From a virus (Duplodnaviria; Caudoviricetes): a stretch of 64,000 bases of DNA. Location of the stretch: IMG/VR virus record IMGVR_UViG_3300032285_001531; one strand, given 5' to 3'. Made by a program: the position numbers and the translations under genes. Shown here one piece after another: positions 3,145 through 35,248 of the stretch; position 1 is the first letter of the stretch; each line of letters starts with the position of its first letter. The notes below the pieces were generated by a model. The model was not told the DNA's origin. It saw only the letters and a program-made list of their open reading frames with translations, and ran no database searches.

Positions 3145-3149
3145 ATGAT

Positions 3150-3225: not shown

Positions 3226-3235
3226 CGATTGTTAC

Positions 3236-5021: not shown

Positions 5022-5041
5022 AGTAGCTCCTAAATAATATA

Positions 5042-6035: not shown

Positions 6036-6166
6036 AGTGTTTCCTTTCAATGTGTGTATATTATATATGCCTATTAGCACCGTTGTAAATATAGGTTTTG
6101 GCTATTTTTTGATTGTATTTTTCAATAGAATTAATAGGTGATGTCAATCTATTTGTAAATAGAACT

Positions 6167-7051
6167 ATGCCCTCAGGAATAGTTTTCAACCCAAATAGTT
6201 ACGATATAGTATTCTTAAGCTATGATGAACCAAACGCTGACATAAACTATCAGCACCTTCTTTCAATAAAACCCAAAGCAATGAGAGTACATGGAGTCAA
6301 AGGCAGTGATGCCGCACATAAAGCATGTGCTGAGTTAGTTAAGACTGAACGTGTTATAATTGTAGACGGAGACAATCATGTATTGCCCAATATATTTGGT
6401 CGTAACGTTTATACCAAAACAGATTATGATTGGACTGATAAAGTATTCAGTTGGAGTAGCGTCAACGTAATTAATCATACTAGCTATGGCAACGGTGGAG
6501 TTAAATGCTGGCCTGTCAAATTGATTAAAGAAATGCGTACACATGAAGTAGGGTCGAGTATTGATTTTGACTTATCCAATTACCTAGAACTCAACGCAAT
6601 AGGCAGTCACACTATCATAAACGGTTCTGCTAAACAAGCATTTAGAGCAGGATTCAGAGATGGAGTAAAACTTAGTTTAGTCAAAGATGATTGGCGAACT
6701 GATAATAGACTGTACAACTGGTTGCACGTAGGCAGTGACGTAGAGTTTGGGCTGTGGACTATATATGGTGCTAGACTAGGACGATTCATGTTGAAACGTG
6801 ATTTTGATGTAACTATATTGAATGACTTTGATAAATTGAATCAGATGTTCAGCAAATATTACGGGATAGCACATAATAATCTTGAATATGAATGCAATAG
6901 ATTAGGTGAATTATTAGATATAGGCCCAGTGCTAAGTATAGAAGAAAGTATAAATTTTAAACAGAATTACAAAGCACCTATAAGAAGTCCAGAACTTTTT
7001 ATGGGTGGCGATAGACAAGATGCTATAAATAAATTTAATGAACGAATTTGA
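6167..7051 (+). CDS. Glycosyltransferase-like (GT-A, DxD) protein
   Basis: YDIVFLSYDEPNAD...GVKGSDAAHKACA...VDGDN. Likely start ATG 6167 after TAAATA (6156-6161). Confidence 0.6.
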   Translation: MPSGIVFNPNSYDIVFLSYDEPNADINYQHLLSIKPKAMRVHGVKGSDAAHKACAELVKTERVIIVDGDNHVLPNIFGRNVYTKTDYDWTDKVFSWSSVNVINHTSYGNGGVKCWPVKLIKEMRTHEVGSSIDFDLSNYLELNAIGSHTIINGSAKQAFRAGFRDGVKLSLVKDDWRTDNRLYNWLHVGSDVEFGLWTIYGARLGRFMLKRDFDVTILNDFDKLNQMFSKYYGIAHNNLEYECNRLGELLDIGPVLSIEESINFKQNYKAPIRSPELFMGGDRQDAINKFNERI

Positions 7052-8018
7052 TAAGATACCATTTGATAGAATAACAAAATTTGGGCAACAGACAATGTTG
7101 CAATATCCTCTTTTTTCTATTAGTTGGATACTAGGAAGATTCTGTAATTATAAATGCTCATATTGTTGGCCCTATGCTAACTCCAGTACACCAGACTATC
7201 AATCACTAGATACATATAAAAAATCTATAGACGAAATAAAACGTCAAGCCAAAGCAAATGGATTCAGAGACTTTCATTGGTCTTTTAGTGGTGGTGAGCC
7301 AACTGCATATAAACATCTACTAGAATTAATCAGACACCTAGATGATAATGTTACTCCCTATCAAAGCATACACCTGACTACTAATTTAAGCCCTAGTAAG
7401 AAGTGGTGGATGAATTGGGGAATGGCAACTGAGTTGATTCAACGTAAGTCAATCACTGCAAGTTTTCATAGTGAGTTTGCAAACGAAAGTGAATTCACTG
7501 ACAAGTGTTTATTCTTAATGGGCGAAAATGTACATGTTACTATCAATCAAGTAATGGTACCTGATCAGTTTGATGAACTATATGCCCGTTGCAAACGATT
7601 TAGTGATAAAGGAATAAATGTAACATTAAAGCCACAAAGTAATGATACTGCCACAGAGATAGTAAGCGGCTACAATGATGAAATGATTACACTTATGCGT
7701 AACGGTTTTCCACAGCAACATAAAAAGACACAGTTCTATCAAATCAAATTATATGAAAACGATACTGAATATGAATTGGATCAAGCAGAAAGATTCAATG
7801 CGTTTGGGTTTAATAAGTTTGAAGGATGGAGTTGTAATTCAGGATATCAAAGTGTTATAATACGTAGTAATGAGGTTAAGCGTGGCTATAGTTGTCGTGA
7901 TGAAATATTAGGCACATTAGATAATGGCTTTACCTTATTCAGTGAACCAAAAGTTTGTGTGACTCCTAGTTGCGTGAGTAGTGCAGACAGTAAGATACCA
8001 AAATGCAAATTGACTTAG
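7038..8018 (+). CDS. Radical SAM protein with C-terminal Cys cluster (SPASM/twitch-like)
   Basis: CNYKCSYC, SFSGGEP; C-terminal C...C...C...CVSSAD. Confidence 0.9.
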   Translation: MNEFDKIPFDRITKFGQQTMLQYPLFSISWILGRFCNYKCSYCWPYANSSTPDYQSLDTYKKSIDEIKRQAKANGFRDFHWSFSGGEPTAYKHLLELIRHLDDNVTPYQSIHLTTNLSPSKKWWMNWGMATELIQRKSITASFHSEFANESEFTDKCLFLMGENVHVTINQVMVPDQFDELYARCKRFSDKGINVTLKPQSNDTATEIVSGYNDEMITLMRNGFPQQHKKTQFYQIKLYENDTEYELDQAERFNAFGFNKFEGWSCNSGYQSVIIRSNEVKRGYSCRDEILGTLDNGFTLFSEPKVCVTPSCVSSADSKIPKCKLT

Positions 8019-8596
8019 ACCATGTAATGTTTTGGATGGATGCTATACGTAATAGCAGTGACCCTAAGCGCACATTAGAATCATTTTGGAAGGGTCAATT
8101 ACGTAGTAAGCGTTGGCTAATAGAAGAACTAACTCCATTCATAGTTGAGCCTATGAGTTTTGATATACACGGTGGTTGGAACGGAGTATTAGCAAGTATG
8201 ATATTCCAAAGCAATATGCCTGTAAAGAATATTCGTAGTGTAGACATTGATCCTTCATGTGAAGAAATTTGTCGCACAATGAATAAGTTAGAAGAAATAG
8301 CAGGACGTTTTCGTGCAGTAACCGCAGATATGTGTAATATACGTAGTGATGCGGATGTCATTATCAATACAAGTTGTGAACATATATCACAGGATGAATA
8401 TGATATGTGGCTAAGCGGCATACCTCAGAACAGTCTTATAGTGTTACAAAGTAATGATTATAAGATTGATGAACACGTTAGAGTGGTTGACAGTTTAGAA
8501 GAATTTGTAAGTCAGAGTGACATTGATGTAGAGTATAGTGGCGAGTTTGAATTGCCACTATATACTCGTTATATGATTATTGGAAACAAATACTAA
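8003..8596 (+). CDS. Class I SAM-dependent methyltransferase-like protein
   Basis: IHGGWNGVLA, RSVDIDP, TADM, IINTSCEH. Confidence 0.7.
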   Translation: MQIDLDHVMFWMDAIRNSSDPKRTLESFWKGQLRSKRWLIEELTPFIVEPMSFDIHGGWNGVLASMIFQSNMPVKNIRSVDIDPSCEEICRTMNKLEEIAGRFRAVTADMCNIRSDADVIINTSCEHISQDEYDMWLSGIPQNSLIVLQSNDYKIDEHVRVVDSLEEFVSQSDIDVEYSGEFELPLYTRYMIIGNKY

Positions 8597-9651
8597 TTGT
8601 CCCAAACAGTAGGATTGTTTATTCTACCCGTAAAGTTCCCGCAATTGCCTGCACATGCTGCTAAGCGACCCTCACTATATTTACGCCCATCCCAACTCTC
8701 TTGTATCTTGTTATAAAATACATTGTCTATGATGTTATGCCACTCAGTTTCATATAGATTAACTTTACTTTTACCTTCAGTATCCCAAAGATGATCCCAA
8801 CCATCGGGTACAGTTAATGTTACTCTGCTATATAAACTAGCACCTAAGAAACAACAAGGAAATACATTACCCTGACTGTCAATATATACACTACGGTCTT
8901 TCTTAGCATAGCAATCTATATTACTATTCTCACTACTATCTAACCATTGCTGTACATCTAATTTCTTTAATGGTTGCATGACCACACTGTGTACATATTT
9001 CTCATCAGTTGGTGGCTCAATTATAACTCCATCTGTACCAACAGGTCTACGACCTAAAATATTATCTAATGCGAATCTATGACTAGATATAATGATAAAG
9101 TTTTTAAAGCCTAAGTCTTTGCTAAGTTCTTTTGCTTCATCTACTTGATGTTGATTATGTTTGAATACAATGAACTGCCAATTAGCAATACCACCTGCAT
9201 TAATGAATGCTATACTGTTAACCATTACCTTCTGATAGTTTACATTCATACGATAGATATGATTAGTATTCGATAACCCATCTATAGCAAAGTTAACCTC
9301 ATGATTGGGACCTAATGCTTCTACTAACATAGTCCAAAATATAGGGTTCTTCATGCCACCATTAGTGCTAATCTTAATCATAGCATTAGGAGCTTTCTCT
9401 CTAGCCTTCTTTACTACCTCAATAAAGTTTGGGGCAGCGCACGGATCTCCCATTGTGCCACTGAATAATATCTTTTTTATATTTGCATATACATGATCGG
9501 GTATACGGTCAAAGAACTCTGTTGTCAAGTGTGTTTGCTTGAACCAACTATAGTCACCCGGATATGTTTCACGTAAGCATTGTGGACATGCAGCATTACA
9601 TATACTGCTGTTCTCTATATCTAAGTTTATTATGTTATCGTAGAAATTCAT
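8593..9651 (-). CDS. Radical SAM/SPASM protein
   Basis: CNAACPQC, FSGTMGDP, STNGG, FAIDG; C-terminal PCC and CAGNC. Confidence 0.9.
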   Translation of the reverse strand: MNFYDNIINLDIENSSICNAACPQCLRETYPGDYSWFKQTHLTTEFFDRIPDHVYANIKKILFSGTMGDPCAAPNFIEVVKKAREKAPNAMIKISTNGGMKNPIFWTMLVEALGPNHEVNFAIDGLSNTNHIYRMNVNYQKVMVNSIAFINAGGIANWQFIVFKHNQHQVDEAKELSKDLGFKNFIIISSHRFALDNILGRRPVGTDGVIIEPPTDEKYVHSVVMQPLKKLDVQQWLDSSENSNIDCYAKKDRSVYIDSQGNVFPCCFLGASLYSRVTLTVPDGWDHLWDTEGKSKVNLYETEWHNIIDNVFYNKIQESWDGRKYSEGRLAACAGNCGNFTGRINNPTVWDN

Positions 9652-9659
9652 GTAGTTAT

Positions 9660-10352
9660 TTAATTTATTTTAATAGCCTGATCTATCAATGATTCAGGAT
9701 AGTTACTTCTAAAGCTATTAAAACATATTAGTTGTAATGTTGGTATATCGTATGGTGTATCTAAATCCATTTTATAATGATCCAACATTAATTGCAACTT
9801 ATCCTGACGGTCTATGCTTATTTGTATTAGCAAATCACGTATTTTAATTTTAGGATCAGTTTTATTAAAAGAAAAGAACCAATTATATGGAGTAAGCACT
9901 CCGTCTATAGCTACCCAACTGTTCGGATGTAAACTAAATTTATAAATGCCTGCTTTCTTCATTTCAGTGATTCTATCTAACCACTGTGCTTGCCAGTTCG
10001 GTAATACTTTATCGTATCCACCATTGTTAATCCCTTGCATTAAAAAATCATCACCATGCCAATCAATGTATATTTCTCTTTTGAAAACATTAATGTCTTG
10101 TATTTTTAATGTGGGTATACTTGCTTTACGTGCAATCTCATGAAAAGTTACTTCACGTGAAAATCTATCAGTAAGAAGTTCGTTTGTCCAAAGTTTGTTT
10201 TCTTCTGGCCATCTGTGGTAATTAACATCTCTGTTAAAACTCATGCATAATGTTTTCTTATCCGGGCTTACGTAAGGAGTGTATACTAAGTTAGAACGTA
10301 CCCATTCTTGTCCTTCTAAATTATAAAGAAATGTCCAATTATCAGTTATCAT
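9660..10352 (-). CDS. Protein-kinase-like fold protein with non-canonical catalytic motifs
   Basis: FSREV...IPTLKIQD...IYIDWHG, and GIYKFSLHPNS...DGVLTPYNWF at the positions of HxDxxxxN and DFG. Confidence 0.4.
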   Translation of the reverse strand: MITDNWTFLYNLEGQEWVRSNLVYTPYVSPDKKTLCMSFNRDVNYHRWPEENKLWTNELLTDRFSREVTFHEIARKASIPTLKIQDINVFKREIYIDWHGDDFLMQGINNGGYDKVLPNWQAQWLDRITEMKKAGIYKFSLHPNSWVAIDGVLTPYNWFFSFNKTDPKIKIRDLLIQISIDRQDKLQLMLDHYKMDLDTPYDIPTLQLICFNSFRSNYPESLIDQAIKIN

Positions 10353-10368
10353 ATATTTGTCTCCTGAA

Positions 10369-10383
10369 TATTTATAATAAATA
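10369..10383. promoter_or_regulatory. Back-to-back divergent late-promoter boxes
   Basis: TATAAATA on minus (10369-10376) abuts ATAAATA on plus (10377-10383), between divergent genes that each have an AGGAG RBS. Confidence 0.6.
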
Positions 10384-10399
10384 CCAACAGGAGAATAAA

Positions 10400-11182
10400 A
10401 TGATTCGTGGCATAGGTGGAAAACCTTTTATTAATTTAGATAATCTAATAGACATTGACGGATTTAAAAAGCTACACTATAAAATCTGCAAGGGGATACT
10501 AGATTCTGATTACAAAAAAGAAGGCAATATGGTTCAGCCCGGTGGGTTTAATAACGCATATGAGTTAACCTTTAAGCCATTGTTTCAAGCATTAGAAGAA
10601 TATCATAATTTACCCGAGGATCATGAAATTAGAATTTTGGGTAGAGAAATAGGTGAATATCAAAATCGTGATAAATTTATGCTGTTTCTTAAACTAGCAC
10701 TAGGTGCATATGATGCATATCAATTTGTATTTTTAAAGACCGAAGAAGGTGGTTGGGAAAGTAGATTTGAAGAAAAAGCATGGACTCCTGATGCAAAGTA
10801 TTTCCCTGAACTTAAACTATGGTTAGAAAATTTGATTACCACAGGTGTATTCAAACACTTAGGTAGAATCATAATTTTTAAAGCAGAGCATGATTGTTAT
10901 ATGCCATTACACAGAGATTTAATTTATCCTGAAGAAAACGATTACTTTAATCATAGACATGAGTTTATACATTTACGTACTAACTTAGATAAACCTTTTT
11001 ATATTTGGGATCGTGATGCTGATAGTAAGATACTAACAGATAGTCATGCTACATTTTTTAACGATCAGGACTGGCATGCAGGTGGACGCACTAATAAACA
11101 AACCTATAGCATACGTGTTGATGGTATATTTACTGATGAATTTCGTGAAAAGATGGGAATCAATAATTTAGATTTTTATTGA
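10400..11182 (+). CDS. 2OG-Fe(II) oxygenase-like (double-stranded beta-helix) protein
   Basis: GRIIIF...MPLHRD...WHAG...SIRVDG (HxD...H...R). Start ATG 10400 with CAGGAG RBS. Confidence 0.65.
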   Translation: MIRGIGGKPFINLDNLIDIDGFKKLHYKICKGILDSDYKKEGNMVQPGGFNNAYELTFKPLFQALEEYHNLPEDHEIRILGREIGEYQNRDKFMLFLKLALGAYDAYQFVFLKTEEGGWESRFEEKAWTPDAKYFPELKLWLENLITTGVFKHLGRIIIFKAEHDCYMPLHRDLIYPEENDYFNHRHEFIHLRTNLDKPFYIWDRDADSKILTDSHATFFNDQDWHAGGRTNKQTYSIRVDGIFTDEFREKMGINNLDFY

Positions 11183-12639
11183 TTAAGTTTTTTACGTTTA
11201 TATTTTTCAATATGTGCCTGCTTTGCAAAATAATATGTACTTGTCTCGTTGTTAATTATTTCTTCTAATACATTATCATTTATTAAAGACTTTGGCTGCT
11301 CAAAGAAATGAGCCATAGTAAAATTGTTTACAGGATTGGTATTGATAGTAGAATCATTAAAATCATATGCCATTTTCTTTGCTGTGGCATGAGTAAAATG
11401 ATCGTTCTGCCAATTTATAACATGATTGTGTTTAAATATATTATATGAATCATCGTATTCTTCTTCAGTGTTTAATCTATAGCCATACTTTTGAAGATCC
11501 AAAGAAATCTTACTCGGCTTAAGTGATTTACTATCCACAGATGGAATTTCAAGACCAAAACTTTTTACACTTTGATGATTCTTAATCCAGTAATTATCAA
11601 TCCAATCAAATGTATCCTGTTGAGTGTCAACTGTTTCACCGGGCAAGCCAATTACTAAAGCTATAGTTGCACGATAGGGTAAACTTTCAGATTTAAAATA
11701 ACTAATAACGTCTAATAGACCTTGCTGAAGTCTTTCCTTTTTGATTCCTTTTCCTATAAATTTAGCTGTAGGGGTGTTCATAGTTTCTATACCATAGAAG
11801 TGACCAAGTAAACCCATGCGAGCCATATGCTCTCTATCCTGTTTTCGTAGTACTAATAAATCTGCTCTAATAAAGCCTGAGAAATAAGGATTGAAACTTA
11901 ACTGTTCAGTAGCATCTGCAAATTTTATTAGTTTCTCTGTACTTTCATTTATAGTTTCATCACCAATTAGATATTTTGTTACACCGTAATCATCATATGT
12001 TCTTTGTAGTTGCGTAGTATAATTATCAGCATCTCGTGTATAATCGCCCTTTACTCCAAGTATAGGAAAATTACAGTATGGACATTCAAACTTGCATCCG
12101 CGTCCAAGCTCTATGCCTAACCATTCGTTAGATTCTATATAATCTCTTTTTTCATAAACTATATCTAAGTCTTTTAAAGGTGCGCTAGGATAAAAAGAAT
12201 TACCGTCAATAACTTTTTTATCATACATAATTTTAAATCTTACCGATGGGCCATTGCCTACAAGATTTTTCAACAAGGCTAAAATAGCATTTTCTCCAAA
12301 TCCTGTTATATAATAATCAATGTCTTTAGAAATAGTATCTGGAATATATTGACCGCCTATAACCATTTTAACTTGTGGGTAATTAATTTTAACCCAAGAA
12401 ATAAATGAATCAATTTCTGGAGGATACAGTCCAAAAGTACAACTGAATCCTAATAGTTTTGTAGAAGAATCAATTCTTTGAGTAGCAAGTAATTTTAACT
12501 CATCTAATGAAAAATAGTTAGCCCAATCTATTACTTCAACATCCCAATCATTTTTTCTCATTATAGTAGCAATACGATGAGCACCAGGACTTCGGTATGG
12601 CATGTCTGTTTGAAGATTAAAAATTATAGATTTAAACAT
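11176..12639 (-). CDS. Cobalamin-binding radical SAM protein (class B methylase-like)
   Basis: N-terminal B12-binding region (GAHRIAT...GFSCTF...VIGG...GFGE), IELGRGCKFECPYC, GIET, IGLPGET. Confidence 0.88.
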   Translation of the reverse strand: MFKSIIFNLQTDMPYRSPGAHRIATIMRKNDWDVEVIDWANYFSLDELKLLATQRIDSSTKLLGFSCTFGLYPPEIDSFISWVKINYPQVKMVIGGQYIPDTISKDIDYYITGFGENAILALLKNLVGNGPSVRFKIMYDKKVIDGNSFYPSAPLKDLDIVYEKRDYIESNEWLGIELGRGCKFECPYCNFPILGVKGDYTRDADNYTTQLQRTYDDYGVTKYLIGDETINESTEKLIKFADATEQLSFNPYFSGFIRADLLVLRKQDREHMARMGLLGHFYGIETMNTPTAKFIGKGIKKERLQQGLLDVISYFKSESLPYRATIALVIGLPGETVDTQQDTFDWIDNYWIKNHQSVKSFGLEIPSVDSKSLKPSKISLDLQKYGYRLNTEEEYDDSYNIFKHNHVINWQNDHFTHATAKKMAYDFNDSTINTNPVNNFTMAHFFEQPKSLINDNVLEEIINNETSTYYFAKQAHIEKYKRKKLNQ

Positions 12640-13123
12640 CGTAGATTGTTAGTTGTAGACTTACTTTAGGTATGAATGTTAGATTAGCACTACCATGTAA
12701 TGCAGTTGGATCATCAAATTCAAATATATCACCGGCTTGATAATCAGAGATAAGTTTATCTTTGTAAACAAATATATGACCTGTAATGTAGTCTTGATAA
12801 GGAATCCAAAGTCGCCTAACATTACAGCCGTTATCTTTAAATGTATCTACGTGCATTGGAAATAAACATGCAGGATCAAGACGAACGAACCACCAATCTA
12901 TGTTTCCTGTATACGGTATTGGCAATTCAATATCATTGATTCCAATTTCTTCGTAATAAAATCTCCATCTTGCGCCGGCTACATCAAGACCTTGATAGTC
13001 TTTGCCTTGCGCTCTTGCCTTTTCGCTTTCTTCTTTCCCAGGACGAACTTGACCTTCACTGTTCATTACTGCATCAAGTAATTCTTGCTTTACCCAATTT
13101 TTATAATTTCCTAGATATTTCAT
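12632..13123 (-). CDS. 2OG-Fe(II)/Asp-Asn beta-hydroxylase-like oxygenase
   Basis: FPMHVD...RRLWIP...GHIF...LHGSAN...KVSLQLT. Confidence 0.7.
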   Translation of the reverse strand: MKYLGNYKNWVKQELLDAVMNSEGQVRPGKEESEKARAQGKDYQGLDVAGARWRFYYEEIGINDIELPIPYTGNIDWWFVRLDPACLFPMHVDTFKDNGCNVRRLWIPYQDYITGHIFVYKDKLISDYQAGDIFEFDDPTALHGSANLTFIPKVSLQLTIYDV

Positions 13124-13125
13124 AG

Positions 13126-13137
13126 ATAAGTATTTAT
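13126..13137. promoter_or_regulatory. Overlapping divergent late-promoter-like boxes
   Basis: ATAAGTA on plus (13126-13132) and ATAAATA on minus (13131-13137), in a 15-bp gap between divergent genes. Confidence 0.5.
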
Positions 13138-13138
13138 T

Positions 13139-14527
13139 ATGTCAGATAGAATCAAAACATTTATAAAACTCATTGAAGATAGAACCGGTACTCCAACATT
13201 CTGCGCACTACCTTGGATACATTTAGCAACTAGACCTAATGGAGATGCTAGACTATGCTGTGTTACTAATGCTAGTGGCGCACATACAGGAGATCATACT
13301 GTAGGATTAGTTAAAAAAGAAAACGGTGTTCCTGCAAACTTCGGTAAAGATACCCCATTAAGTGCAATTAATAATCAATATATGCGTGATGTACGACTAA
13401 CAATGTTAGACGGAAAGATCCCTGCAAGTTGCACAAAATGCTTTGAGGAAGAAGATAACGGTGTAGTCAGCAAAAGATTATGGGAACTATATTCATGGGA
13501 TAAAGATGGACTAGACTTTAATGAATTAATAGATAATACGCAAGTTGACGGAACTATTCCTCCTGTGTTAAGATACTTAGACTTACGTTTAGGACATACT
13601 TGTAATCTTAAATGTGTTATGTGTAGCCCGCATGATAGTAGTCGCTGGTTACAAGACTATGAGAAAGTAATGAGTAAAACTACTAGTCCTATTGTTATTA
13701 AACAAATCAAATGGGATAAGTTAGAATTTGATAATTTTTGGTATGAAAAATCAGAGTTTTGGGATGAAATATTCGAACAAATTCCCAATATAACTCAGCT
13801 ATACTTTGCTGGTGGTGAGCCATTAATGATTAAAGAACATCGTAGATTCTTAGATGAGATAATCAAACGTGGATATAATAAGCAAATTACATTAAGATAT
13901 AATAGTAACGGAATATATGTTAATGACGATATTATTAATGTATGGAGCCAATTTAAAGAAGTAAAGTATGCATTCAGTATTGACGGAAACTTCGATAGAA
14001 ACGGATACATACGATTCCCAACAGACTGGACAGATATTGAACGTAGCCTAGATTTACTAGACAATACTCCAGACAATATTCATTGTAGTATTGCTTGTGC
14101 TGTACAAGTGTTGAATATCAAACACATCGTTAATTTCGCCAAGTGGAAACTGTCGAAAGGCTACAAGAAAATCAACAAGTACAAGATGGATGACTATGAA
14201 GCAGGTGGTGGCATAATTAGTCTACACTTGCTTTATATTCCTACATTCTTATCTGCACGTATTCTTCCAGAGAAGGATAAAGCAGAAGTAAGACAACAAA
14301 TATTAGATTTTAAGGAATGGTTATGGACAAATTATACACAAGACGAGAATTTTTGGCAGGTAAATCCTTATGGATGGAAGCGTTGGGAAGCTATCTTACG
14401 TTTTATAGACAAGGAAGATCATAGTCATATGGTCCCCGACTTTGCAGAATATGTAAAGAACTTAGATAGTATTAGGGGAACAGATTTCGCTGCGACTTTC
14501 CCTGAACTCGCACATCTACTTTCGTAA
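13139..14527 (+). CDS. Radical SAM protein with N-terminal twitch/SPASM-like domain
   Basis: FCALPWIH...RLCC...CTKCF; CNLKCVMC; YFAGGEP. Confidence 0.9.
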   Translation: MSDRIKTFIKLIEDRTGTPTFCALPWIHLATRPNGDARLCCVTNASGAHTGDHTVGLVKKENGVPANFGKDTPLSAINNQYMRDVRLTMLDGKIPASCTKCFEEEDNGVVSKRLWELYSWDKDGLDFNELIDNTQVDGTIPPVLRYLDLRLGHTCNLKCVMCSPHDSSRWLQDYEKVMSKTTSPIVIKQIKWDKLEFDNFWYEKSEFWDEIFEQIPNITQLYFAGGEPLMIKEHRRFLDEIIKRGYNKQITLRYNSNGIYVNDDIINVWSQFKEVKYAFSIDGNFDRNGYIRFPTDWTDIERSLDLLDNTPDNIHCSIACAVQVLNIKHIVNFAKWKLSKGYKKINKYKMDDYEAGGGIISLHLLYIPTFLSARILPEKDKAEVRQQILDFKEWLWTNYTQDENFWQVNPYGWKRWEAILRFIDKEDHSHMVPDFAEYVKNLDSIRGTDFAATFPELAHLLS

Positions 14528-15401
14528 GAGGAATATCTGCTGCACATGTGCAACTGTCACGTGTGCAGATTACAGGATCAATAGGTAATTCAAATGTATC
14601 ATTATATATATTACCTAAACTTCCTCCTACTCTACATGTAGCACGATGTACTTCCCCGTCCCAATTAATCATTAAACTTTCTAATCCTGCAGTACAAGTC
14701 CAACCCTTAAACTTATTCTTATGCAATTTAATTATGTCATTGGCATGCATTAGTTCTATATCATCAATAATAGTGTTAGGCTTAACAGTTGCAGTTCTAC
14801 TTAATATCCAGTCTAAATCATTTTGGTCATAGCGCATATCGTCAAATATATTATGATCACCTTCTGTCCAACGTATTCTGCGTATAGCATATGGTATATC
14901 CCATCTATCAAAAGCAAAGACTGCCTTACGAACTTCTTCCATCTTATCAGGATGAGCCATGACATTAATCATAAAAGGCTTGATTACTGCTTCAGGACTA
15001 TCGGATCTAGCAAACATTAATATATTCTCTAATACATTTTCCCAGTCATATTCAAAGTGTAAGCTGAATACATAATGACTAACAGGTAAATTAAGATAAT
15101 AACTTGCTTTTCTAGTTCCATTAGTAGTAACGTTGATCCACTGTATATCACTATCTACACAATACTGTACTAATTCTTCGAACTGTGGATGTACACAGGG
15201 TTCTCCACCTGTAAAGCTAATTCTACTACTCTTTGAAAGCTTATCTACTGCACGTTTAAGTATCTCTATATCTGTATGCGGGCTAGATAAGTCATGTATC
15301 TGTGAAGGACAATAACTACAGTCATAGTTACAGCGTTTCCCTAAGTTCCATTCAACCTTAATCTTATCCTGATGTGCGTATGCGCTTGTTATTTTATACA
15401 T
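14472..15401 (-). CDS. Radical SAM/SPASM protein
   Basis: CNYDCSYC, SFTGGEP, TTNG; C-terminal CTAG...CRVGG...CTRDSCTCAAD. Confidence 0.9.
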   Translation of the reverse strand: MYKITSAYAHQDKIKVEWNLGKRCNYDCSYCPSQIHDLSSPHTDIEILKRAVDKLSKSSRISFTGGEPCVHPQFEELVQYCVDSDIQWINVTTNGTRKASYYLNLPVSHYVFSLHFEYDWENVLENILMFARSDSPEAVIKPFMINVMAHPDKMEEVRKAVFAFDRWDIPYAIRRIRWTEGDHNIFDDMRYDQNDLDWILSRTATVKPNTIIDDIELMHANDIIKLHKNKFKGWTCTAGLESLMINWDGEVHRATCRVGGSLGNIYNDTFELPIDPVICTRDSCTCAADIPLTKVDVRVQGKSQRNLFP

Positions 15402-16725
15402 ATAGTTTAAACTCTGGTGTCACTTCTACAAATTTACGACTATCTCTGCTATTATCTAAACGTCTATTAAATTCTACAGTATCAGGCCATAAATGACTTT
15501 CATCTTTACTACGAATAAAGTTAATTACCCCGTCAATTTGCTGTAATGTTAGATTTAATAATATACTATGCTGTTTAACATATTTAAAGTCAGGGACTTT
15601 AGTCTTTATTGCTTCTAGTCTACTAACAGCTAATTCTTTTAATTCATTGGGCATAGTCTGTACACTTAATACGTTAGGATATTTAACCATATTAGTATAG
15701 AATACAATACCCAAATCATCTAGGAAGTATTCTATCATCTTATCTAATACTAACACATTACTTACTTGCACTGCTACTGCCCCTACTATACGTGTAATAT
15801 TAGGAATAGTCTGTACTTGTTTAATATTGTTGATTAATTCACTCCATACCGCGTTTCCACGTATATATTCATAACTATCAGCATAACCGTCTATACTAAC
15901 GTTCACAGCTACACTCTTGAATTTGGGCCAGTACTCCCATATAGTACGATTACTCTTCCCTAGTGTGGTCAAGTTTGTAGCATACTTAATCTCAATGTTA
16001 TCTCCATAGGGTGCAAGCATATCTAATATACGATAATGCTGTGGATCCATCAACGGTTCGCCACCTGCAAACTCTACTCTACGGAAGTATGGGAGATTCT
16101 TCTCTAAGCTATTCCACCATTCAGGATTATTCTGAAATTCATCTAATAAAGGTTTATTCTCTAAATTATGTTCTTCTACTAGATTGTAAATTACTTTGCC
16201 CTCGTCTTTATAAAAGTCTTTAATCTCACTCCAGTCATTCCAACTTGTGCTATCGCCCGGGTGACACATACGACACTTAAGATTACATAAATTGTTTAAT
16301 TTTAATTCCATTGTAGGAATACCTTCGGGCATAACGTAATCATCATTTAACTTGCTTAATGCATCAGGATATAGATTAATACGTGCTTCAGGAATAACTC
16401 CGGCTATGTGTCGTTGTCTTAAACTTTCTACACCCTGATCTTCTAAACTGAAACAGGGTTCGCATTCAGATGGACGTATATCATTTAATACTTGATGACG
16501 TATACGCTTCATATTATCATTGTTCCATACTTCTTCTAATGATTCTTTCTGTATCCAACCTATAGGGTGACTGCGGCAACATGCTTGTATGGCTCCATCT
16601 TCTCTTGTAGCAAGCCCTGTAAAAGGATGCATACAAAATGTTTTACTTGTTTTGTTCAATTGCCCACTCTCTTTCTTTGCACCAAAAACACTCACCGCAT
16701 ATAGGAACATACTGATCCATAACAT
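15394..16725 (-). CDS. Radical SAM protein with N-terminal twitch/SPASM-like domain (true start probably near 16659)
   Basis: FCMHPF...ACC...CEPCF; CNLKCRMC; EFAGGEP. Paralogue of 13139..14527. Confidence 0.9.
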   Translation of the reverse strand: MLWISMFLYAVSVFGAKKESGQLNKTSKTFCMHPFTGLATREDGAIQACCRSHPIGWIQKESLEEVWNNDNMKRIRHQVLNDIRPSECEPCFSLEDQGVESLRQRHIAGVIPEARINLYPDALSKLNDDYVMPEGIPTMELKLNNLCNLKCRMCHPGDSTSWNDWSEIKDFYKDEGKVIYNLVEEHNLENKPLLDEFQNNPEWWNSLEKNLPYFRRVEFAGGEPLMDPQHYRILDMLAPYGDNIEIKYATNLTTLGKSNRTIWEYWPKFKSVAVNVSIDGYADSYEYIRGNAVWSELINNIKQVQTIPNITRIVGAVAVQVSNVLVLDKMIEYFLDDLGIVFYTNMVKYPNVLSVQTMPNELKELAVSRLEAIKTKVPDFKYVKQHSILLNLTLQQIDGVINFIRSKDESHLWPDTVEFNRRLDNSRDSRKFVEVTPEFKLYV

Positions 16726-17374
16726 ATGTTTTATAATCTATTCCTGCAAATTCACCTTCACAACTGCGTGTCATTAAAAGTAAATCTTTAGCAATATTAT
16801 AATTAATATATTGTTTTATAATCCAATCTTTTTGTACAAATCTAAAAGGATGTACGGCATATCTATCCATATGTTTCATTAAACGCAAATGTTGATTGTT
16901 TTCGTTAGATTCAATATTACGTTCAGTCATACCGGATAGATGAGATGGATTGCGTGTTACTGCATTATAATATGCATCAATATTATACTTGTCACAGATG
17001 TATTCTGCATATGCACGTTGTTGTATGTTATCCCCTGATACTTGTTTGCCGTATTCGTCTGTCAAACTAGGACCTATATTACCGTATTCAAGTTCCGGTG
17101 CAATAAAATTTACATGTCTATACCATGTGGGGCAGTGAAAATATTCGTATAACCATTGATACACTCTTAGACTATCAACTTCCTGCCAAGGTCTAGTCTT
17201 CCACATTCTGGTGTGACTTATGATGTGAATTGTTACATCTCTTTTTTCTTTTTCTATAATGTCGCATAATATATAGGCAAGCAATGCGCTATCAGCACCA
17301 CCGCTTAAACTAATAGCTATACTTTCCCATTCTTTATTGAACGGTATATTAACTCCATCTATATTATATTCCAT
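16643..17374 (-). CDS. QueC-like PP-loop ATP pyrophosphatase
   Basis: ISLSGGADSA (SGGxDS); C-terminal TRSC...CGECFWCKER zinc site. Confidence 0.7.
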   Translation of the reverse strand: MEYNIDGVNIPFNKEWESIAISLSGGADSALLAYILCDIIEKEKRDVTIHIISHTRMWKTRPWQEVDSLRVYQWLYEYFHCPTWYRHVNFIAPELEYGNIGPSLTDEYGKQVSGDNIQQRAYAEYICDKYNIDAYYNAVTRNPSHLSGMTERNIESNENNQHLRLMKHMDRYAVHPFRFVQKDWIIKQYINYNIAKDLLLMTRSCEGEFAGIDYKTYVMDQYVPICGECFWCKEREWAIEQNK

Positions 17375-18227
17375 GTTCTTCCAAATATCTAATTAACGGT
17401 GCTATTCCCACTGGATGTCCGTCACGCATTGCAATATGTATGCTCTGTGTTGCACGTAGATTAAAGTCGTTGCATATTTTATAATAGCGATCACCGTGTG
17501 TCATCCACAAATAATCTTTAGGGAAGTTACGCAAGAAATGATTAGCTATCATTACCAATGCTCTATTGTTCATATGAAAGTCATTCATAATAGTAATAGC
17601 ATCAGGTTCTTTCTTCTTAGTCCATCTTAATCCTACTCTATTCCAACCCAACCCTAACCCTTTACTCAAACTAATAGCAACTGAAACAATAGCCGGATGA
17701 TCAAAGTTAAAGTGTATGCCATGACTGCAAGTAACCCAAGCACCGTCAATATGAACTTCAATTTCGTTTTCCAAACAGTCATCTAGTATATCATTCATGT
17801 CATAATGTATTGCACCAATGCTAGGAAAAGGCATTGCAATAATTAATGGTTTATACGGCACTAAGTAATTAGGAGTGCTATATATTAAGTTTGGATTCAA
17901 TCGTTCATGGTATCTATAATCACCTAACAACACTTGTATATCTTTTTCTTGCATATAGATGGTGTCAATGAATTGGGTGCATCCCATTGTTATGTCAATT
18001 CTATCAAAAGTATCAATACCTTTTAATACGTTAACATTGCTATTGAATATGTAATCATGTGCTAAACTACGGAAGTCATCATATACTTTATCCGTAATAT
18101 CTTTGTCCATTCCCCCTGATAATACTTCTTGTATAGTGTTCTCAATTTTTCTATCACTAAGAGTTTGCGGTCTATCCGTTTCTAAATATTCTTCCGAATA
18201 AACAGGAGCAATTTTTGTTCTTTTCAT
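17364..18227 (-). CDS. PLP-dependent enzyme (fold type I, aminotransferase-like)
   Basis: HIDGAW (PLP Asp), SLSKGLGLGWNRVG (Schiff-base Lys). Confidence 0.7.
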   Translation of the reverse strand: MKRTKIAPVYSEEYLETDRPQTLSDRKIENTIQEVLSGGMDKDITDKVYDDFRSLAHDYIFNSNVNVLKGIDTFDRIDITMGCTQFIDTIYMQEKDIQVLLGDYRYHERLNPNLIYSTPNYLVPYKPLIIAMPFPSIGAIHYDMNDILDDCLENEIEVHIDGAWVTCSHGIHFNFDHPAIVSVAISLSKGLGLGWNRVGLRWTKKKEPDAITIMNDFHMNNRALVMIANHFLRNFPKDYLWMTHGDRYYKICNDFNLRATQSIHIAMRDGHPVGIAPLIRYLEEHGI

Positions 18228-18250
18228 AATTTTATTTAATAAATATAGTC

Positions 18251-18931
18251 ATGCTCACTAAATTACATTCAATTGAAAACATTTCTGAAATTGTTACCCA
18301 AATTAATGAAATGAATATTGACATTAAACATAAAGCATTGAACGTTACTAACGGCAATATCCTTACTGGAAATTATACACTAATTGAAGAAATAGTCAAT
18401 ACCCCATTAGGTAATTTTTTAGACAGTTTGGGTGACATAGGTGAGGCTAGATTACTTGTATTAGAATCCGGTGAATCGTACACTGCTCATACTGACCCAG
18501 ATGATAGAATACATTTAGTAATAACGACTAATCCAGATTGCTATCTTATTGATTTAGATGATGAAAAAATGTATCACTTGCCTGTTGATGGGCAAATATG
18601 GTACATGGATACAGGAGTTCGTCATGTTGCTAGTAACTTTGGTGGCAGACCTCGTATACATTTAAATGTTCGTGTGAAACTACCAAAAATAACATATCCC
18701 TGTTACAAGATAAGTGTTAGTGGCGGTGAATATGATTGGAAACAAGAATTATATGACGGTCTTATGAGTTACCTAAATTACGGAATAAAAAATAACAATA
18801 TTGAAGGTATAGAAAAAATTAGTGAACGTGAACTATTAGTTAATTGCAATTCGGATACGTTGAATTCTATTATCAAAATAATAACAGACAAAAAATTTAT
18901 AGTTGATATTATTGAAATTTATCAACCGTAA
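18251..18931 (+). CDS. 2OG-Fe(II)/Asp-Asn beta-hydroxylase-like oxygenase with C-terminal extra domain
   Basis: ARLLVL...YTAHTDPDDRIH...RHVASN.GGRPRIHL. ATAAATA at 18239-18245. Confidence 0.75.
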   Translation: MLTKLHSIENISEIVTQINEMNIDIKHKALNVTNGNILTGNYTLIEEIVNTPLGNFLDSLGDIGEARLLVLESGESYTAHTDPDDRIHLVITTNPDCYLIDLDDEKMYHLPVDGQIWYMDTGVRHVASNFGGRPRIHLNVRVKLPKITYPCYKISVSGGEYDWKQELYDGLMSYLNYGIKNNNIEGIEKISERELLVNCNSDTLNSIIKIITDKKFIVDIIEIYQP

Positions 18932-19997
18932 TAAATTGATCATTAGGATTGCTTATTATTTTTTCTTTACTCTTCCCGCATGCACGTGCGCAAGTAAGTA
19001 GTTTCTTTTCATTCCAATATTCATTCCAAACTGATTGATATTCTACACTATCAATAATGTCCTTTATGCTATTATTTTCTATATCTAATTTTTGTAGTCC
19101 ACCTAAACTCTTTACAAGGTCATGATATTGATTTAGCATTTCTTGTTTAGCCGGAATAAAAGAACCCTCATGGTCTATCGGTATATAGGGTAAACTACCT
19201 AACCAACAACAGGGCATTAAATATCCTTTAGCATCCAAGTATATCTCACGCTCTTTTTGCACGTAACATTCGATGGTCATTTCATCTACTATTTTTCTGT
19301 AATTGTTTAGTACATTCTTGTCAATAAACTTCAATTCACTATACTTACTAGGTTCTAAATTATATATGGTTTCTTTTTTATCATTCCATACAGGAAATTT
19401 AGGTTCTAATAAGAATCTACTACTATCTTTCATAACAAAAGTTTGAAATCCTAATTGTTTTGCTAATTCTTTAGCTTCATCAACCTGATGTTCATTGTGT
19501 TTAAATCTTATAAAAGCCCATTCTGCTTTTCCACCAGCTAATATAAAATGATGAGCATTTTCAATAATAGTATTGTAGTTAGTTCCTATACGATATATTG
19601 AATGTGTATCCTCTAAACCATCAATAGCAAAAACTACACAATGATTTTCTGGTAATGAATGTACTAACTTAATCCACCATGCATTGCTTCTAGCTGAACC
19701 ATTTGTGTGTATACGTATCTGTATGTTTGGATTTACTGTTTTTGCGTATAAACACATGTCGGGTAAATCTTTATTAATGATTGGATCTCCAAAATTACCA
19801 CAAAAATATAATTTGTTTAACTGATTTAATACTTCCGAAGTAAATGCTATTTTGAATCTATCTAATGTCCAATTTTCTATTTCCAATAATGGATTTACTA
19901 CTCCGCCATGTATATTTCTGGTACACATAGGACAACTAGCTTGGCAGTTATTGGTTATTTCTATATGAACGCTCTTTAGTTCTTCAAATTTAAACAT
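18909..19997 (-). CDS. Radical SAM/SPASM protein
   Basis: CQASCPMC, FCGNFGDP, HTNG, FAIDG, PCC, CARAC. Paralogue of 8593..9651. Likely start ATG 19997. Confidence 0.9.
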   Translation of the reverse strand: MFKFEELKSVHIEITNNCQASCPMCTRNIHGGVVNPLLEIENWTLDRFKIAFTSEVLNQLNKLYFCGNFGDPIINKDLPDMCLYAKTVNPNIQIRIHTNGSARSNAWWIKLVHSLPENHCVVFAIDGLEDTHSIYRIGTNYNTIIENAHHFILAGGKAEWAFIRFKHNEHQVDEAKELAKQLGFQTFVMKDSSRFLLEPKFPVWNDKKETIYNLEPSKYSELKFIDKNVLNNYRKIVDEMTIECYVQKEREIYLDAKGYLMPCCWLGSLPYIPIDHEGSFIPAKQEMLNQYHDLVKSLGGLQKLDIENNSIKDIIDSVEYQSVWNEYWNEKKLLTCARACGKSKEKIISNPNDQFITVDKFQ

Positions 19998-20067
19998 TTG
20001 ATTTTTTCCGTGAATAAATATTCTACTATTTAACAAGATAATCCTACACCAGATTTAAAAATACATA

Positions 20068-20772: not shown

Positions 20773-20773
20773 T

Positions 20774-21514
20774 ATGGGATTAGCTTTCTTACCGATTGAC
20801 ATAGATGCACGATTACCTGATGAAGAAAGAGTAATTCAATATTGTCATGATAATCATTTAAAATTACCTGGGTTTGGTATAAACTTTGAGTTTGTTCCGG
20901 TAATTTCTAGATTAGATGATGCTGAATGGAATGATAAACAATTAATCAAAGAAACATTAAGTAATCGGTATAATGTTTCTGATAAAAAATCTAAGTATTA
21001 TAAAGACATAGACAAAATATTTCCTGAAATTCCATATATGGTAGAACAATTACCGTTCAAAGAAATAACTTTTGCAGCCTTGTTGTTACAAAAAAAATAT
21101 GTTGATCACCATATGGATACCAATGAAGGTGACACTGCAGAAGATCCTTATGAAATTAGTATTGAAAATGAGCCACATAGGTATAATATACAATTGACCC
21201 AACATACAAAAAATAAATTTTTTATGAGTCAAGAAATTAACGGAGAAAAGACACATCGTGTTATATCTAAAGAAAGACCATGTTTTGTTTTTTCTGAAAG
21301 ATATTATTGGCACGGTGGGGAGTATGAAGTAGAAAATTGCGTACATTTTGCTATTATGGCAATTGTAGATAGAGTAAAGCATAAAGACATGATTATAAAA
21401 AATCTTATTAAGTATCACAATGAGGCAATAATATATCCTGATCCAATAGATCCATGGGATCCCAAATATCAATCTCAGTATGATGCTAACGGTAACGACA
21501 TTTATAATACGTAA
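20774..21514 (+). CDS. 2OG-Fe(II) oxygenase-like protein, tandem paralogue 2
   Basis: HHMD...EPHRYNIQLT...YWHG. Confidence 0.6.
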   Translation: MGLAFLPIDIDARLPDEERVIQYCHDNHLKLPGFGINFEFVPVISRLDDAEWNDKQLIKETLSNRYNVSDKKSKYYKDIDKIFPEIPYMVEQLPFKEITFAALLLQKKYVDHHMDTNEGDTAEDPYEISIENEPHRYNIQLTQHTKNKFFMSQEINGEKTHRVISKERPCFVFSERYYWHGGEYEVENCVHFAIMAIVDRVKHKDMIIKNLIKYHNEAIIYPDPIDPWDPKYQSQYDANGNDIYNT

Positions 21515-21532
21515 TAACACAACGGAGAAAGT

Positions 21533-22252
21533 ATGACCATAGCATTTTTACCAATTGATATTGATGTAAAACTTCCAGATGAGGAAAAAATAATAAAATT
21601 CTGTGAAGAATTTAAAATGGCAAAATTAAATGTAGAAAAAGATAAAGGATCCCATTGGGATGTTGTTCCTGTATTAAGCCGAATTTCTGAACAAGATTGG
21701 AATGATAGTTTAAAAGCAAAACATTCAATAAACAATCGCTATGTTCCTAATTTAGGAGAACCTAGATACCTAAATAATATTGATAAACTTTTCCCTGAAA
21801 TACCATACATGCTTGAACAATTGCCATATAAAGAACTAACAATAGTTTCATTGTTATTACAAACTGAATATGTACCACATCATTTTGATCCACATTACGG
21901 AGATGTGACACCTGATCCATATGAAATTAGTATCGAAAATGAACCACATAGATATAACATACAACTAACACATCATAATAAAAATGCATTTTTTGTTAGT
22001 GAAAAACACGGTGGTGAAAAGTTATACCCTAAAATAACTAAAGAAAGACCATGTTTTGCTTTTTGTGAAAGATATCATTGGCACGGAAGTGATTATATTG
22101 GTCCTAATAAGATACAACTAAGTGTTTTTGGCATAGTGGATAGAATAAAACACAAAGATATGATTATTAAAAATCTTATTAAATACCGTGATGAAGCAAT
22201 CATATTGCCTAATCCAATAGATCCTTGGGATCCTATACATCATCACTCTTAA
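21533..22252 (+). CDS. 2OG-Fe(II) oxygenase-like protein, tandem paralogue 3
   Basis: HHFD...EPHRYNIQLT...HWHGSDY. Confidence 0.6.
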   Translation: MTIAFLPIDIDVKLPDEEKIIKFCEEFKMAKLNVEKDKGSHWDVVPVLSRISEQDWNDSLKAKHSINNRYVPNLGEPRYLNNIDKLFPEIPYMLEQLPYKELTIVSLLLQTEYVPHHFDPHYGDVTPDPYEISIENEPHRYNIQLTHHNKNAFFVSEKHGGEKLYPKITKERPCFAFCERYHWHGSDYIGPNKIQLSVFGIVDRIKHKDMIIKNLIKYRDEAIILPNPIDPWDPIHHHS

Positions 22253-22806
22253 TGTATAAACTAGTAGAGTACAATGATAGATTAGACTTAACTTCATTCT
22301 ATGAGAATGCAAGTAATCGTGGATTTGATAATAACTCTAATAAAAAAATACTGATAGACAGTTTTTCTAAAGAACATGATTCATGTATTTGGATATTGTA
22401 TTATAATGATGTCCCTGCGGGCAGTGTAGCTGCACATAGTTTAGATATATTTGATAAGATAAGTTATAGAATATGTGCAAGAACTTGTGTGTTTACTGAT
22501 TTATTACCTATTCGTACATTAAGAAGTTTAGGAAATACAATATTAAAACATCAAAACATAACAGCACAGTTTTATATACCTAAATGTATTGAATACTGCC
22601 CTGTTGATAGTGATTTATACATTACTACGAACAACAGCGAAATAGCTAGTCAAAGACAAGTACATCAAATATACTGTCCTGCATTAGAAAAGTCAGGTGT
22701 TCTAACAAAAACCCACGAACTTATGTATCGTGGGCATATTCAAACTTTCTGGAAATTAGATAGAGAAATATTCTTATCTCAATTAAACAGTTATCCTAGG
22801 TGGTAA
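22252..22806 (+). CDS. GNAT-like acetyltransferase (tentative)
   Basis: TAATG-coupled start at 22252; WILYYNDVPAGSVAAH...YRICARTC...LYITTN. Confidence 0.45.
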   Translation: MYKLVEYNDRLDLTSFYENASNRGFDNNSNKKILIDSFSKEHDSCIWILYYNDVPAGSVAAHSLDIFDKISYRICARTCVFTDLLPIRTLRSLGNTILKHQNITAQFYIPKCIEYCPVDSDLYITTNNSEIASQRQVHQIYCPALEKSGVLTKTHELMYRGHIQTFWKLDREIFLSQLNSYPRW

Positions 22807-35247: not shown

Positions 35248-35248
35248 G

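Follow-up and report, generated by a model that had tools for sequence, protein, structure and literature searches.

A conserved island of radical SAM and cupin-type enzymes in uncultured T4-like phages, a possible late sugar-tailoring pathway with a core shared by Bdellovibrionota

Gene content of the island

The DNA described here is a stretch of 64,000 nucleotides (hereafter the window) from the IMG/VR virus record IMGVR_UViG_3300032285_001531 (Duplodnaviria; Caudoviricetes). It is a part of the genome of a large uncultured T4-like phage and contains, at positions 6167-22806 (16.6 kb), an island of tailoring enzymes dominated by radical S-adenosylmethionine (SAM) enzymes and cupin hydroxylases. 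The island comprises 19 genes, which form nine transcription units whose orientation alternates (Table 1). Packing is tight: many genes overlap, internal gaps do not exceed 70 bp and the gap at the left edge is 131 bp. An earlier note, made from the letters of this DNA, had counted about 20 contiguous tailoring genes, which agrees with the present count. All 19 proteins are devoid of transmembrane segments. Genes are named after the start of their open reading frame (e.g., g6167); g10331 is the gene located at 10400..11182, its residues being numbered from the start at 10331.

Table 1. Features of the island. Core, genes shared by phages and Bdellovibrionota; accessory module, genes found in phages only.
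Feature	Coordinates	Strand	Remarks
g6167, GT-A-fold (GT2-like) transferase	6167..7051	+	core member; helical C-terminal domain with WRxAFRE
g7038, radical SAM enzyme	7038..8018	+	PF04055 47.5 bits; core member
g8003, class I SAM-dependent methyltransferase	8003..8596	+	core member; adjoins g7038 in most relatives
g8593, radical SAM/SPASM enzyme	8593..9651	-	PF04055 30.8 bits; PF13186 21.8 bits (cut-off 21.5)
g9660, protein-kinase-like fold	9660..10352	-	phage-only accessory module
Divergent promoter region	10352..10400		TATAAATA on the minus strand at 10369-10376
g10331	10400..11182	+	invariant H194-R-D196...H249
g11176, putative B12-type (class B-like) radical SAM enzyme	11176..12639	-	PF04055 30 bits at 176-347
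g12632, small cupin with HxD...H	12632..13123	-	hhalign 91.8% to the g18251 family
g13139, N-terminal-twitch radical SAM enzyme (NF033640)	13139..14527	+	hallmark gene of the island; core member
g14472, radical SAM enzyme	14472..15401	-	PF04055 44.6 bits; paralogue of g7038
g15394, second N-terminal-twitch radical SAM enzyme (NF033640)	15394..16632	-	331.6 bits (model 1-396)
g16643, PP-loop ATP pyrophosphatase (SGGxDS)	16643..17374	-	usually adjoins g17364
g17364, short (287 aa) fold-type I PLP enzyme, aminotransferase-like	17364..18227	-	
g18251, Asp/Asn beta-hydroxylase-type Fe(II)/2OG cupin	18251..18931	+	PF05118 33.9 bits (cut-off 22.6)
g18909, radical SAM enzyme, SPASM-like C-terminal Cys set	18909..19997	-	core member
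Tandem cupin hydroxylase-like triplet (g20068, g20774, g21533)	20068-20772, 20774-21514, 21533-22252	+	conserved HxD...H
g22252, conserved 184-aa protein	22252..22806	+	accompanies g9660 in relatives (synteny 22225-9660-12632-10331)
PLP, pyridoxal 5'-phosphate; 2OG, 2-oxoglutarate.

Radical SAM enzymes

The CX3CX2C motif is present in each of the seven radical SAM proteins and is invariant among their homologues. Six of the seven have PF04055 scores of 30.0-47.5 bits (cut-off 29.5 bits). g18909 is below that cut-off (17.8 bits) and is assigned by its paralogy with g8593 (33% identity, E 2e-56). There are two further pairs of paralogues, i.e., g13139/g15394 (27% identity) and g7038/g14472 (24%). 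According to alignments of 14-122 homologues, six of the seven proteins have 4-5 additional invariant Cys, which are N-terminal in g13139 and g15394 and C-terminal in g7038, g14472, g8593 and g18909. The C-terminal sets conform to the SPASM/twitch pattern and are predicted to form auxiliary Fe-S domains. The number of radical SAM enzymes, the three pairs and the auxiliary Cys of six enzymes had all been put forward in the earlier note and are borne out here. The remaining enzyme (g11176) has the Cys triad only, and the B12-type character given to it in that note is kept as a putative one.

g13139 matches NF033640 (N_Twi_rSAM, hereafter N_Twi) with 382.8 bits (cut-off 170) over model positions 2-397. 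Five of its Cys (C22, C40, C41, C98, C101), which precede C155x3Cx2C (C155/159/162), are kept in 98-100% of 122 homologues. Its paralogue g15394 also matches PF13186 (33.6 bits) at residues 31-91. g7038 has CX3CX2C at 36-43 and C-terminal Cys 266, 286, 307 and 312, invariant in 54 homologues; g14472 and g8593 each have five invariant C-terminal Cys. The alignments of g11176 with the PhpK family, lipid B12/radical SAM enzymes, BzaD and TIGR04013 start at residues 20-83 (E 1e-18 to 2e-10) and are far below the cut-off. The cobalamin-binding domain PF02310 is not reported in the Pfam scan of this protein, and CX3CX2C provides its only conserved Cys. It is a candidate C- or P-methyltransferase.

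Other enzymes of the island

Among the genes which do not encode radical SAM enzymes, Pfam, NCBIfam and PHROGs named only g18251 and, weakly, the PP-loop of g16643; ten island proteins have no PHROGs match. Families were thus built from the related loci described below. Profile searches against the PDB yielded no useful match with the families of the methyltransferase, of the PLP enzyme, of g10331 and of g22252, nor with that of the neighbouring gene g23288.

The model of g6167 (AlphaFold, pLDDT 86) aligns over residues 6-151 with GT-A enzymes (B4GALNT1, a Leptospira glycosyltransferase, ThuS/SunS, SpsA; VIA-align Z 8-9.7), and its Foldseek neighbours in PDB and AFDB are GT2-like. The DxD motif (D67, D69) is invariant in 15 phage and bacterial homologues. 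Since g6167 has no Pfam match at E up to 5 and does not reach the cut-off of PF00535 (23.3 bits), it is called GT-A-like and not a member of family GT2. The model of g8003 (pLDDT 91.7) resembles NTM1, DnrK, NodS and PhzM (Foldseek, E 4e-10). The family profile of g9660 matches the TTK kinase (3.8e-6) and other Ser/Thr kinases (up to 3e-3) in the PDB. g17364 is about 80-100 residues shorter than typical fold-type I PLP enzymes; its ESM Atlas model (pTM 0.89) has TM scores of 0.71-0.74 to Aminotran_1_2/DegT clusters, and Lys189 (SLSKG) and Asp161 are invariant in 19 homologues. These folds and profiles support the glycosyltransferase, methyltransferase, kinase-like and PLP labels of the earlier note.

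Two other labels are not confirmed. g16643, which had been called QueC-like, is a generic PP-loop protein with an invariant C-terminal Cys set (C205...C226xxC229xxC232). Its only Pfam matches at E up to 1 are PF01171 (19 bits, below cut-off) and NAD_synthase (12.8 bits); the sole NCBIfam match is the N-terminal domain of TilS (25 bits), and in the PDB its profile aligns with NAD synthetase, TtuA, AsnB and MnmA in their PP-loop region only. The QueC assignment (PF06508) is not supported, as no QueC model of Pfam or NCBIfam is matched even at E up to 1. g22252 had been labelled GNAT, i.e., an acetyltransferase; it has no match in Pfam, NCBIfam or PHROGs, and its profile of 9 sequences has none in the PDB.

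The six HxD...H oxygenases of the earlier note are found as five cupin hydroxylases and one further HxD...H protein, g10331, which has the motif and no fold assignment. In g18251 the motif begins with HTD at residue 80. The members of the triplet are 41-56% identical to each other, and the ESM Atlas model of g20774 resembles PF05118 clusters (TM 0.67, feature score 0.95). The link of g12632 and of the triplet with PF05118 is based on profile or structure similarity plus HxD...H and not on a Pfam score. The g12632 family is present in 5-6 copies in some relatives. g10331, which has no match in PDB, Pfam or PHROGs, is possibly a sixth Fe(II) oxygenase. Its family (invariant HRD...WHGGE) comprises at least 1101 public-metagenome clusters, all unannotated and none with a Pfam domain.

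Conservation in uncultured phages

A scan of IMG/VR with g13139 gave at least 131 related stretches, from which 80 loci were kept. The same gene families are inherited together in 80 or more contigs of uncultured phages, with a rearranged order and varying numbers of paralogues. Co-occurrence was counted in the 35 loci having at least 8 kb on both sides, a homologue being scored within 10 kb. Homologues of g18909 and g14472 are found in all 35 loci, those of g15394 and g7038 in 31, those of g8003 and g18251 in 26, that of g16643 in 25, that of g10331 in 24, and those of g9660 and g17364 in 22. The earlier note held that genes scattered in relatives would speak against a common pathway; that objection fails, since the island families co-occur in the long relatives.

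Related islands contain additional genes of sugar metabolism: 8 loci have a full nucleoside diphosphate (NDP)-sugar 4,6-dehydratase/epimerase (E 1e-38), 10 have a piece of a DegT/EryC1 aminotransferase, and 8 have a P-loop kinase of which a part resembles a cytidylyltransferase. There is no close cultured relative, since megablast with the island as query finds no match among 50,697 deposited phages and the protein matches in deposited phages (Ralstonia phage RsoM2USA, Vibrio phages K566/K567, Campylobacter phage CP21) reach only 24-26% identity.

A core shared with Bdellovibrionota

The bacterial relatives of the N_Twi genes are overwhelmingly Bdellovibrionota (GTDB, one genome per species), several of them being located on contigs of 0.9-2.9 Mb. 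Phages and Bdellovibrionota share homologues of g6167, g7038, g8003, g13139 and g18909 with 33-49% identity (46-49% for g7038). The bacterial loci often also contain homologues of g17364, g16643, g8593, g14472 and g11176. They have no homologue of the cupins, g10331 or g22252, and none of the kinase-like g9660 in the loci examined. The island thus consists of two modules, a core shared with bacteria and an accessory module found in phages only. In the tree of g7038, the phage orthologues group together in a single clade (100/100), next to those of bacteria. The extension at the N-terminus of bacterial g8003 fusions was also considered; it is unrelated to any island protein.

Five Bdellovibrionota genomes (G001-G005, 1.9-3.1 Mb) have about 7-16 N_Twi genes each above the cut-off, and none of 14 control genomes has any. 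In one of the five (G003) these genes form runs, with 8 copies within 11 kb and 9 within 24 kb. GT2 genes are enriched near N_Twi genes in the five genomes, 8 of 46 being located within 20 kb as compared with 3.3 expected (2.4-3x, P ~0.02, clustering of glycosyltransferase genes being uncorrected).

The bacterial neighbourhoods of five verified NF033640 members (346-449 bits) were considered, and three of them are sugar loci. On a Bacteriovoracaceae chromosome, ten radical SAM genes adjoin three GT2 genes and PMT_2. In Poseidonocella sedimentorum KMM 9023 (NZ_FOYI01000004.1), two N_Twi and two B12-type radical SAM genes belong to a type I polyketide synthase (PKS) cluster which also encodes FdtA, an NDP-hexose 2,3-dehydratase and an EryCIII-like glycosyltransferase. 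A Brevinematales locus has radical SAM genes in alternation with four GT2 genes and one gene fusion; the fusion (locus L161, 7803-10004, of a metagenome-assembled genome) encodes a 733-aa protein with a GT4-type domain fused to a radical SAM domain.

Late promoter boxes

The earlier note had mentioned late-promoter boxes upstream of several genes. This holds for the core TAAATA, which is located 11-35 nt 5' of the start codon in 7 of the 9 genes leading a transcription unit, and not for the full T4 late box TATAAATA, which occurs only twice in the island. TAAATA boxes precede 9 of the 19 genes in all (about 0.02 expected per gene). In the divergent promoter region, TAAATA is 22 nt before the start codons of both g9660 and g10400 (i.e., g10331). 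The box is also kept upstream of orthologues of g7038 (21 of 36 distinct upstream regions), g17364 (14 of 24) and g18251 (13 of 21), each with 0.018 expected. Late expression, as proposed in the earlier note, is supported by these conserved boxes.

In the relatives, the spacer between TAAATA and the start codon is 4-6 nt for g17364 and g18251 and 6 or 10 nt for g7038, and no Shine-Dalgarno sequence is present. Six genes of the island itself likewise have TAAATA, then 5-7 nt, then the start codon, without a Shine-Dalgarno sequence; TAAATA-start stretches are located at 6150-6166, 7024-7037, 9652-9668, 13124-13138 and 18228-18250. Because of the geometry of T4 promoters, this arrangement suggests that leaderless or near-leaderless late mRNAs are a conserved feature.

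Search for a peptide substrate and flanking genes

The earlier note had seen no obvious substrate gene. None is found in the island, and gaps of at most 70 bp leave no room for one. The only small neighbours are a non-conserved secreted protein of 113 aa and the backbone gene g23288. No match with PF05402 or another RiPP recognition element (RRE; RiPP, ribosomally synthesised and post-translationally modified peptide) is found in the island proteins at E up to 0.01, and the equivalog models of peptide maturases give 15-45 bits for cut-offs of 300-850.

Three candidates were considered and rejected. (i) A CHxS/HxS cassette: a regular-expression scan finds no such repeat in the six frames of the window. 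(ii) pqqA (1799-1912): PqqE is not among the matches of any island radical SAM enzyme. (iii) g23288 (23288-23665, minus) as a dedicated substrate or carrier: it is a backbone gene found in at least 543 IMG/VR stretches and syntenic with endolysin and ribonucleotide reductase genes, and radical SAM genes are near it in only 18 of 41 long loci. It encodes a small acidic family without a known fold (YAQNLYAAxCN ... DYxDWYCSG) and marks a backbone junction, next to endolysin-like and ribonucleotide reductase genes, which is a frequent site of radical SAM islands.

The gene of the 113-aa protein (22900-23241, minus), which has a signal peptide, lies behind a perfect TATAAATA and a strong Shine-Dalgarno sequence. 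Beside it, an endolysin-like gene (Hydrolase_2; 23723-24382, minus) encodes an N-terminal hydrophobic anchor. These two genes are probably a lysis cassette, separate from the island.

On the left side, a redox operon (4524-6035, minus) directly adjoins the island and diverges from it. Its products are a rubrerythrin, a rubredoxin of 44 aa, an AhpC/TSA peroxiredoxin and a short protein of the SGNH/GDSL-like type; in an aerobic host they may serve to reduce the seven Fe-S enzymes or to protect them. As a conserved part of the island the operon is rejected, since the 80 related loci have no homologues of it within 10 kb; a few loci anchored on g23288 do carry rubrerythrin/rubredoxin/AhpC homologues.

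A sugar-activation block of the ADP-heptose type (31154-40191, minus) is located 8 kb from the island, beside two giant genes (3963 and 3315 codons). It comprises a short-chain dehydrogenase/reductase (SDR) epimerase, a HAD/NT5C-like phosphatase, a PfkB kinase and a cytidylyltransferase-like gene (split HldE type), together with several methyltransferase domains and a GT2 match below the Pfam domain threshold. An SDR 28-30% identical to that of the window adjoins the radical SAM island in eight relatives (L072-L079). The window also encodes five tRNA genes (2828-3310), a class Ia ribonucleotide reductase (27298-30728), a tail-fibre-like gene and a tail-fibre assembly chaperone domain.

A possible pathway of sugar tailoring

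The reading we favour, with a probability of about one half, is that the island is a late-expressed cytoplasmic pathway which tailors a nucleotide-activated sugar and transfers it. The sugar as substrate class, the order of the steps and the acceptor are what we infer. The radical SAM enzymes would edit unactivated carbons of a nucleotide-activated or already attached sugar: the twitch/SPASM types by dehydrogenation, epimerisation, deoxygenation or C-C chemistry, and the B12 type by C-methylation. The PLP enzyme g17364 would aminate keto intermediates, the PP-loop ATPase g16643 would activate a carboxyl or carbonyl group and g8003 would methylate the product. In the accessory module, five or six O2-dependent cupins would hydroxylate and the kinase-like g9660 would phosphorylate; sugar kinases with a protein-kinase-like fold have precedents, e.g., WaaP and KdkA. 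The GT-A-like g6167 would finally transfer the product to an acceptor. A cytoplasmic acceptor, e.g., virion fibre proteins, is favoured because all the enzymes are soluble and no gene of a lipid carrier, flippase or polymerase is present. A surface protein of the virion, e.g., the neighbouring giant fibres, is our leading guess for it, and the least supported step of the scheme.

Four results argue for a sugar: (i) the GT-A-like transferase belongs to the conserved core; (ii) NDP-sugar genes are present in related phage islands; (iii) glycosyltransferase or deoxysugar genes lie beside NF033640 members in three of five bacterial neighbourhoods; (iv) GT2 genes are modestly enriched near N_Twi genes. 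The earlier note had left the choice between decoration of virion proteins or glycans and modification of DNA or of a small molecule. This range is narrowed here towards the chemistry of sugars or glycans; peptide hallmarks are absent and nothing points towards DNA.

Several points weigh against this reading. Nucleotidyltransferase, SDR and DegT genes are missing from the island itself and are found in relatives or 8 kb away. Homologues of g6167 are present in only 5 of the 35 long phage relatives, and its GT-A fold also matches the nucleotidyltransferases MobA and IspD. Radical SAM enzymes acting on sugars are matched only weakly in sequence (BtrN twitch, E 0.006; BlsE, E 0.01), and there is neither a demonstrated substrate for any enzyme of the island nor a characterised member of NF033640. 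Two of the five bacterial neighbourhoods contain only radical SAM and unknown genes, and the GT2 enrichment is not large. Moreover, proteins and peptides are frequent substrates of PF05118 and SPASM/twitch enzymes.

Other readings are less probable. The product could be a soluble small molecule independent of the virion (similar to an aminoglycoside, aminocyclitol or nucleoside antibiotic, or a cofactor) which, once released or while still within the infected cell, would serve the phage to manipulate its host or competitors. The mix of enzymes mirrors that of aminoglycoside and nucleoside antibiotic clusters (BtrN, GenK, AprD4, KanJ, APH), the N_Twi genes of Poseidonocella belong to a natural-product PKS cluster, and all the island proteins are soluble. 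A trio of radical SAM, AHBA_syn and amidinotransferase genes of cyanomyoviruses has moreover been labelled "antibiotic synthesis genes" (PMC12801897). However, late-promoter control and a site among structural and fibre genes are better suited to a virion product, and the presence of a GT-A transferase among the core genes implies that the product is attached to something. Neither an exporter or self-resistance gene nor a scaffold-forming enzyme (inositol-phosphate or 2-deoxy-scyllo-inosose synthase, non-ribosomal peptide synthetase/PKS) is found in the island. We consider this reading unlikely.

Direct maturation of a full-length virion protein, in the manner of RiPPs, is somewhat less likely still. 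The target would be encoded elsewhere, e.g., by the giant fibre genes, and would have its residues cross-linked, epimerised or methylated by the radical SAM enzymes and its side chains hydroxylated by the cupins, with g9660 as the kinase and g8003 as the methyltransferase. SPASM/twitch and PF05118 enzymes are indeed best known from peptide and protein substrates, the best Foldseek matches of g8003 include protein N-terminal methyltransferases, g9660 resembles protein kinases, and an island with late boxes lies in a region with fibre genes. On the contrary, there is neither a precursor gene nor space for one, no CHxS/HxS repeat in the 64 kb, no PqqD/RRE domain, and the models of peptide maturases remain far below their cut-offs. 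The one conserved small neighbour, g23288, is a backbone gene with radical SAM genes nearby in fewer than half of its long loci, and the bacterial and phage contexts of the N_Twi family point to sugar enzymes.

Hypermodification of phage DNA or nucleotides (with g16643 as a QueC step, or with bases decorated by a modified sugar) is very improbable: the weak matches of g7038 and g14472 with QueE, viperin and MoaA, and the QueC-like association of a PP-loop with a C-terminal CxxCxxC in g16643, are opposed by QueE scores of 23-31 bits for cut-offs above 200, by the absence of QueC matches, by the association of g16643 with the PLP enzyme, and not with dpdA, in phages and Bdellovibrionota, and by the lack of any DNA-binding protein, transglycosylase, deoxynucleoside monophosphate kinase or hydroxymethylase in the island.

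Within the reading as sugar tailoring, a bolder proposal can be made, which we hold to be doubtful: jumbo T4-like phages and predatory Bdellovibrionota would share a five-gene system that edits sugars by radical chemistry and makes a new class of surface glycan on the attack surfaces of both, each being a predator of Gram-negative cells. This system (GT-A-like transferase, methyltransferase, N_Twi and two further radical SAM enzymes) may edit sugars already present on a glycan or protein, by analogy with RiPP maturases, which edit peptides. If true, the N_Twi family would amount to a large set of "glycan maturases" that catalyse new reactions.

Radical SAM enzymes catalyse some of the hardest reactions in biology, are mostly uncharacterised and are oxygen-sensitive. 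Here seven of them are combined, in an aerobic host, with O2-dependent hydroxylases in a set which is compact and conserved, occurs widely (at least 131 IMG/VR stretches) and is clearly related in evolution to genes of predatory bacteria. Should the product be a glycan of the virion, the island would be a new means for phages to build or disguise a host-recognition surface, and would provide the first function for NF033640. Even a conservative reading leaves a defined minimal core of five genes for expression and assay, and the PKS-deoxysugar cluster of Poseidonocella sedimentorum is one cultured, tractable handle on the N_Twi family.

Comparison with known systems

The enzyme superfamilies, the tailoring of sugars by radical SAM enzymes in antibiotic pathways, NF033640 as an uncharacterised sequence family and the presence of radical SAM cassettes in variable regions of myophages are already known. 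Literature searches found no description of the defined island, of the five-gene core shared with Bdellovibrionota, of the phage-only oxygenase/kinase module or of a function for them, and no functional study of N-terminal-twitch radical SAM enzymes in phages or Bdellovibrio.

Phage DNA hypermodification (dpdA/7-deazaguanine, glucosylation of hydroxymethylcytosine in T4) likewise depends on multi-enzyme pathways of phages, which can include QueE, QueC and glycosyltransferases. The island differs by the absence of TGT/DpdA, FolE, QueD and any gene of nucleotide metabolism, and the QueC and QueE models are unmatched.

The HXS antiphage system and the CHxS-tail cassettes of phages (HxsA-D, TIGR03976-03979; PMC13128918) share with the island clustered radical SAM/SPASM enzymes and, sometimes in phages, oxygenases. 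However, their HxS/CHxS repeat substrate is absent from the window, and the HxsB and HxsC models give 15-24 bits vs. 268-370.

In the host recognition cluster of T4-like pelagimyophages, radical SAM cassettes are found among glycosyltransferase and lipopolysaccharide-type genes, and modification of the host O-antigen was proposed for the glycosyltransferases (Zaragoza-Solas et al. 2020, PMC7029224). The window holds the same ingredients as this pelagimyophage/cyanomyophage cluster within 60 kb. In that paper the cassettes are only mentioned, with no family definition, link to Bdellovibrionota or function.

The antibiotic pathways with sugar radical SAM enzymes (BtrN, AprD4, NeoN, B12 methylases of the GenK/Fom3 type, DesII, BlsE) have the same kinds of enzymes in adjacent genes, i.e., twitch and B12-type radical SAM enzymes, PLP aminotransferase, 2OG oxygenase, kinase-like protein, methyltransferase and glycosyltransferase. 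The likeness is at the superfamily level only (E 0.006-0.01). The twitch is N-terminal here and C-terminal there, a scaffold-forming enzyme is lacking here, and the carrier is a lytic jumbo phage and not an actinomycete.

g13139 and g15394 have a full-length match with NF033640, including the N-terminal Cys cluster before CX3CX2C. NF033640 is defined by sequence only; here, two of its members are found in a phage island of 19 genes together with five other radical SAM enzymes.

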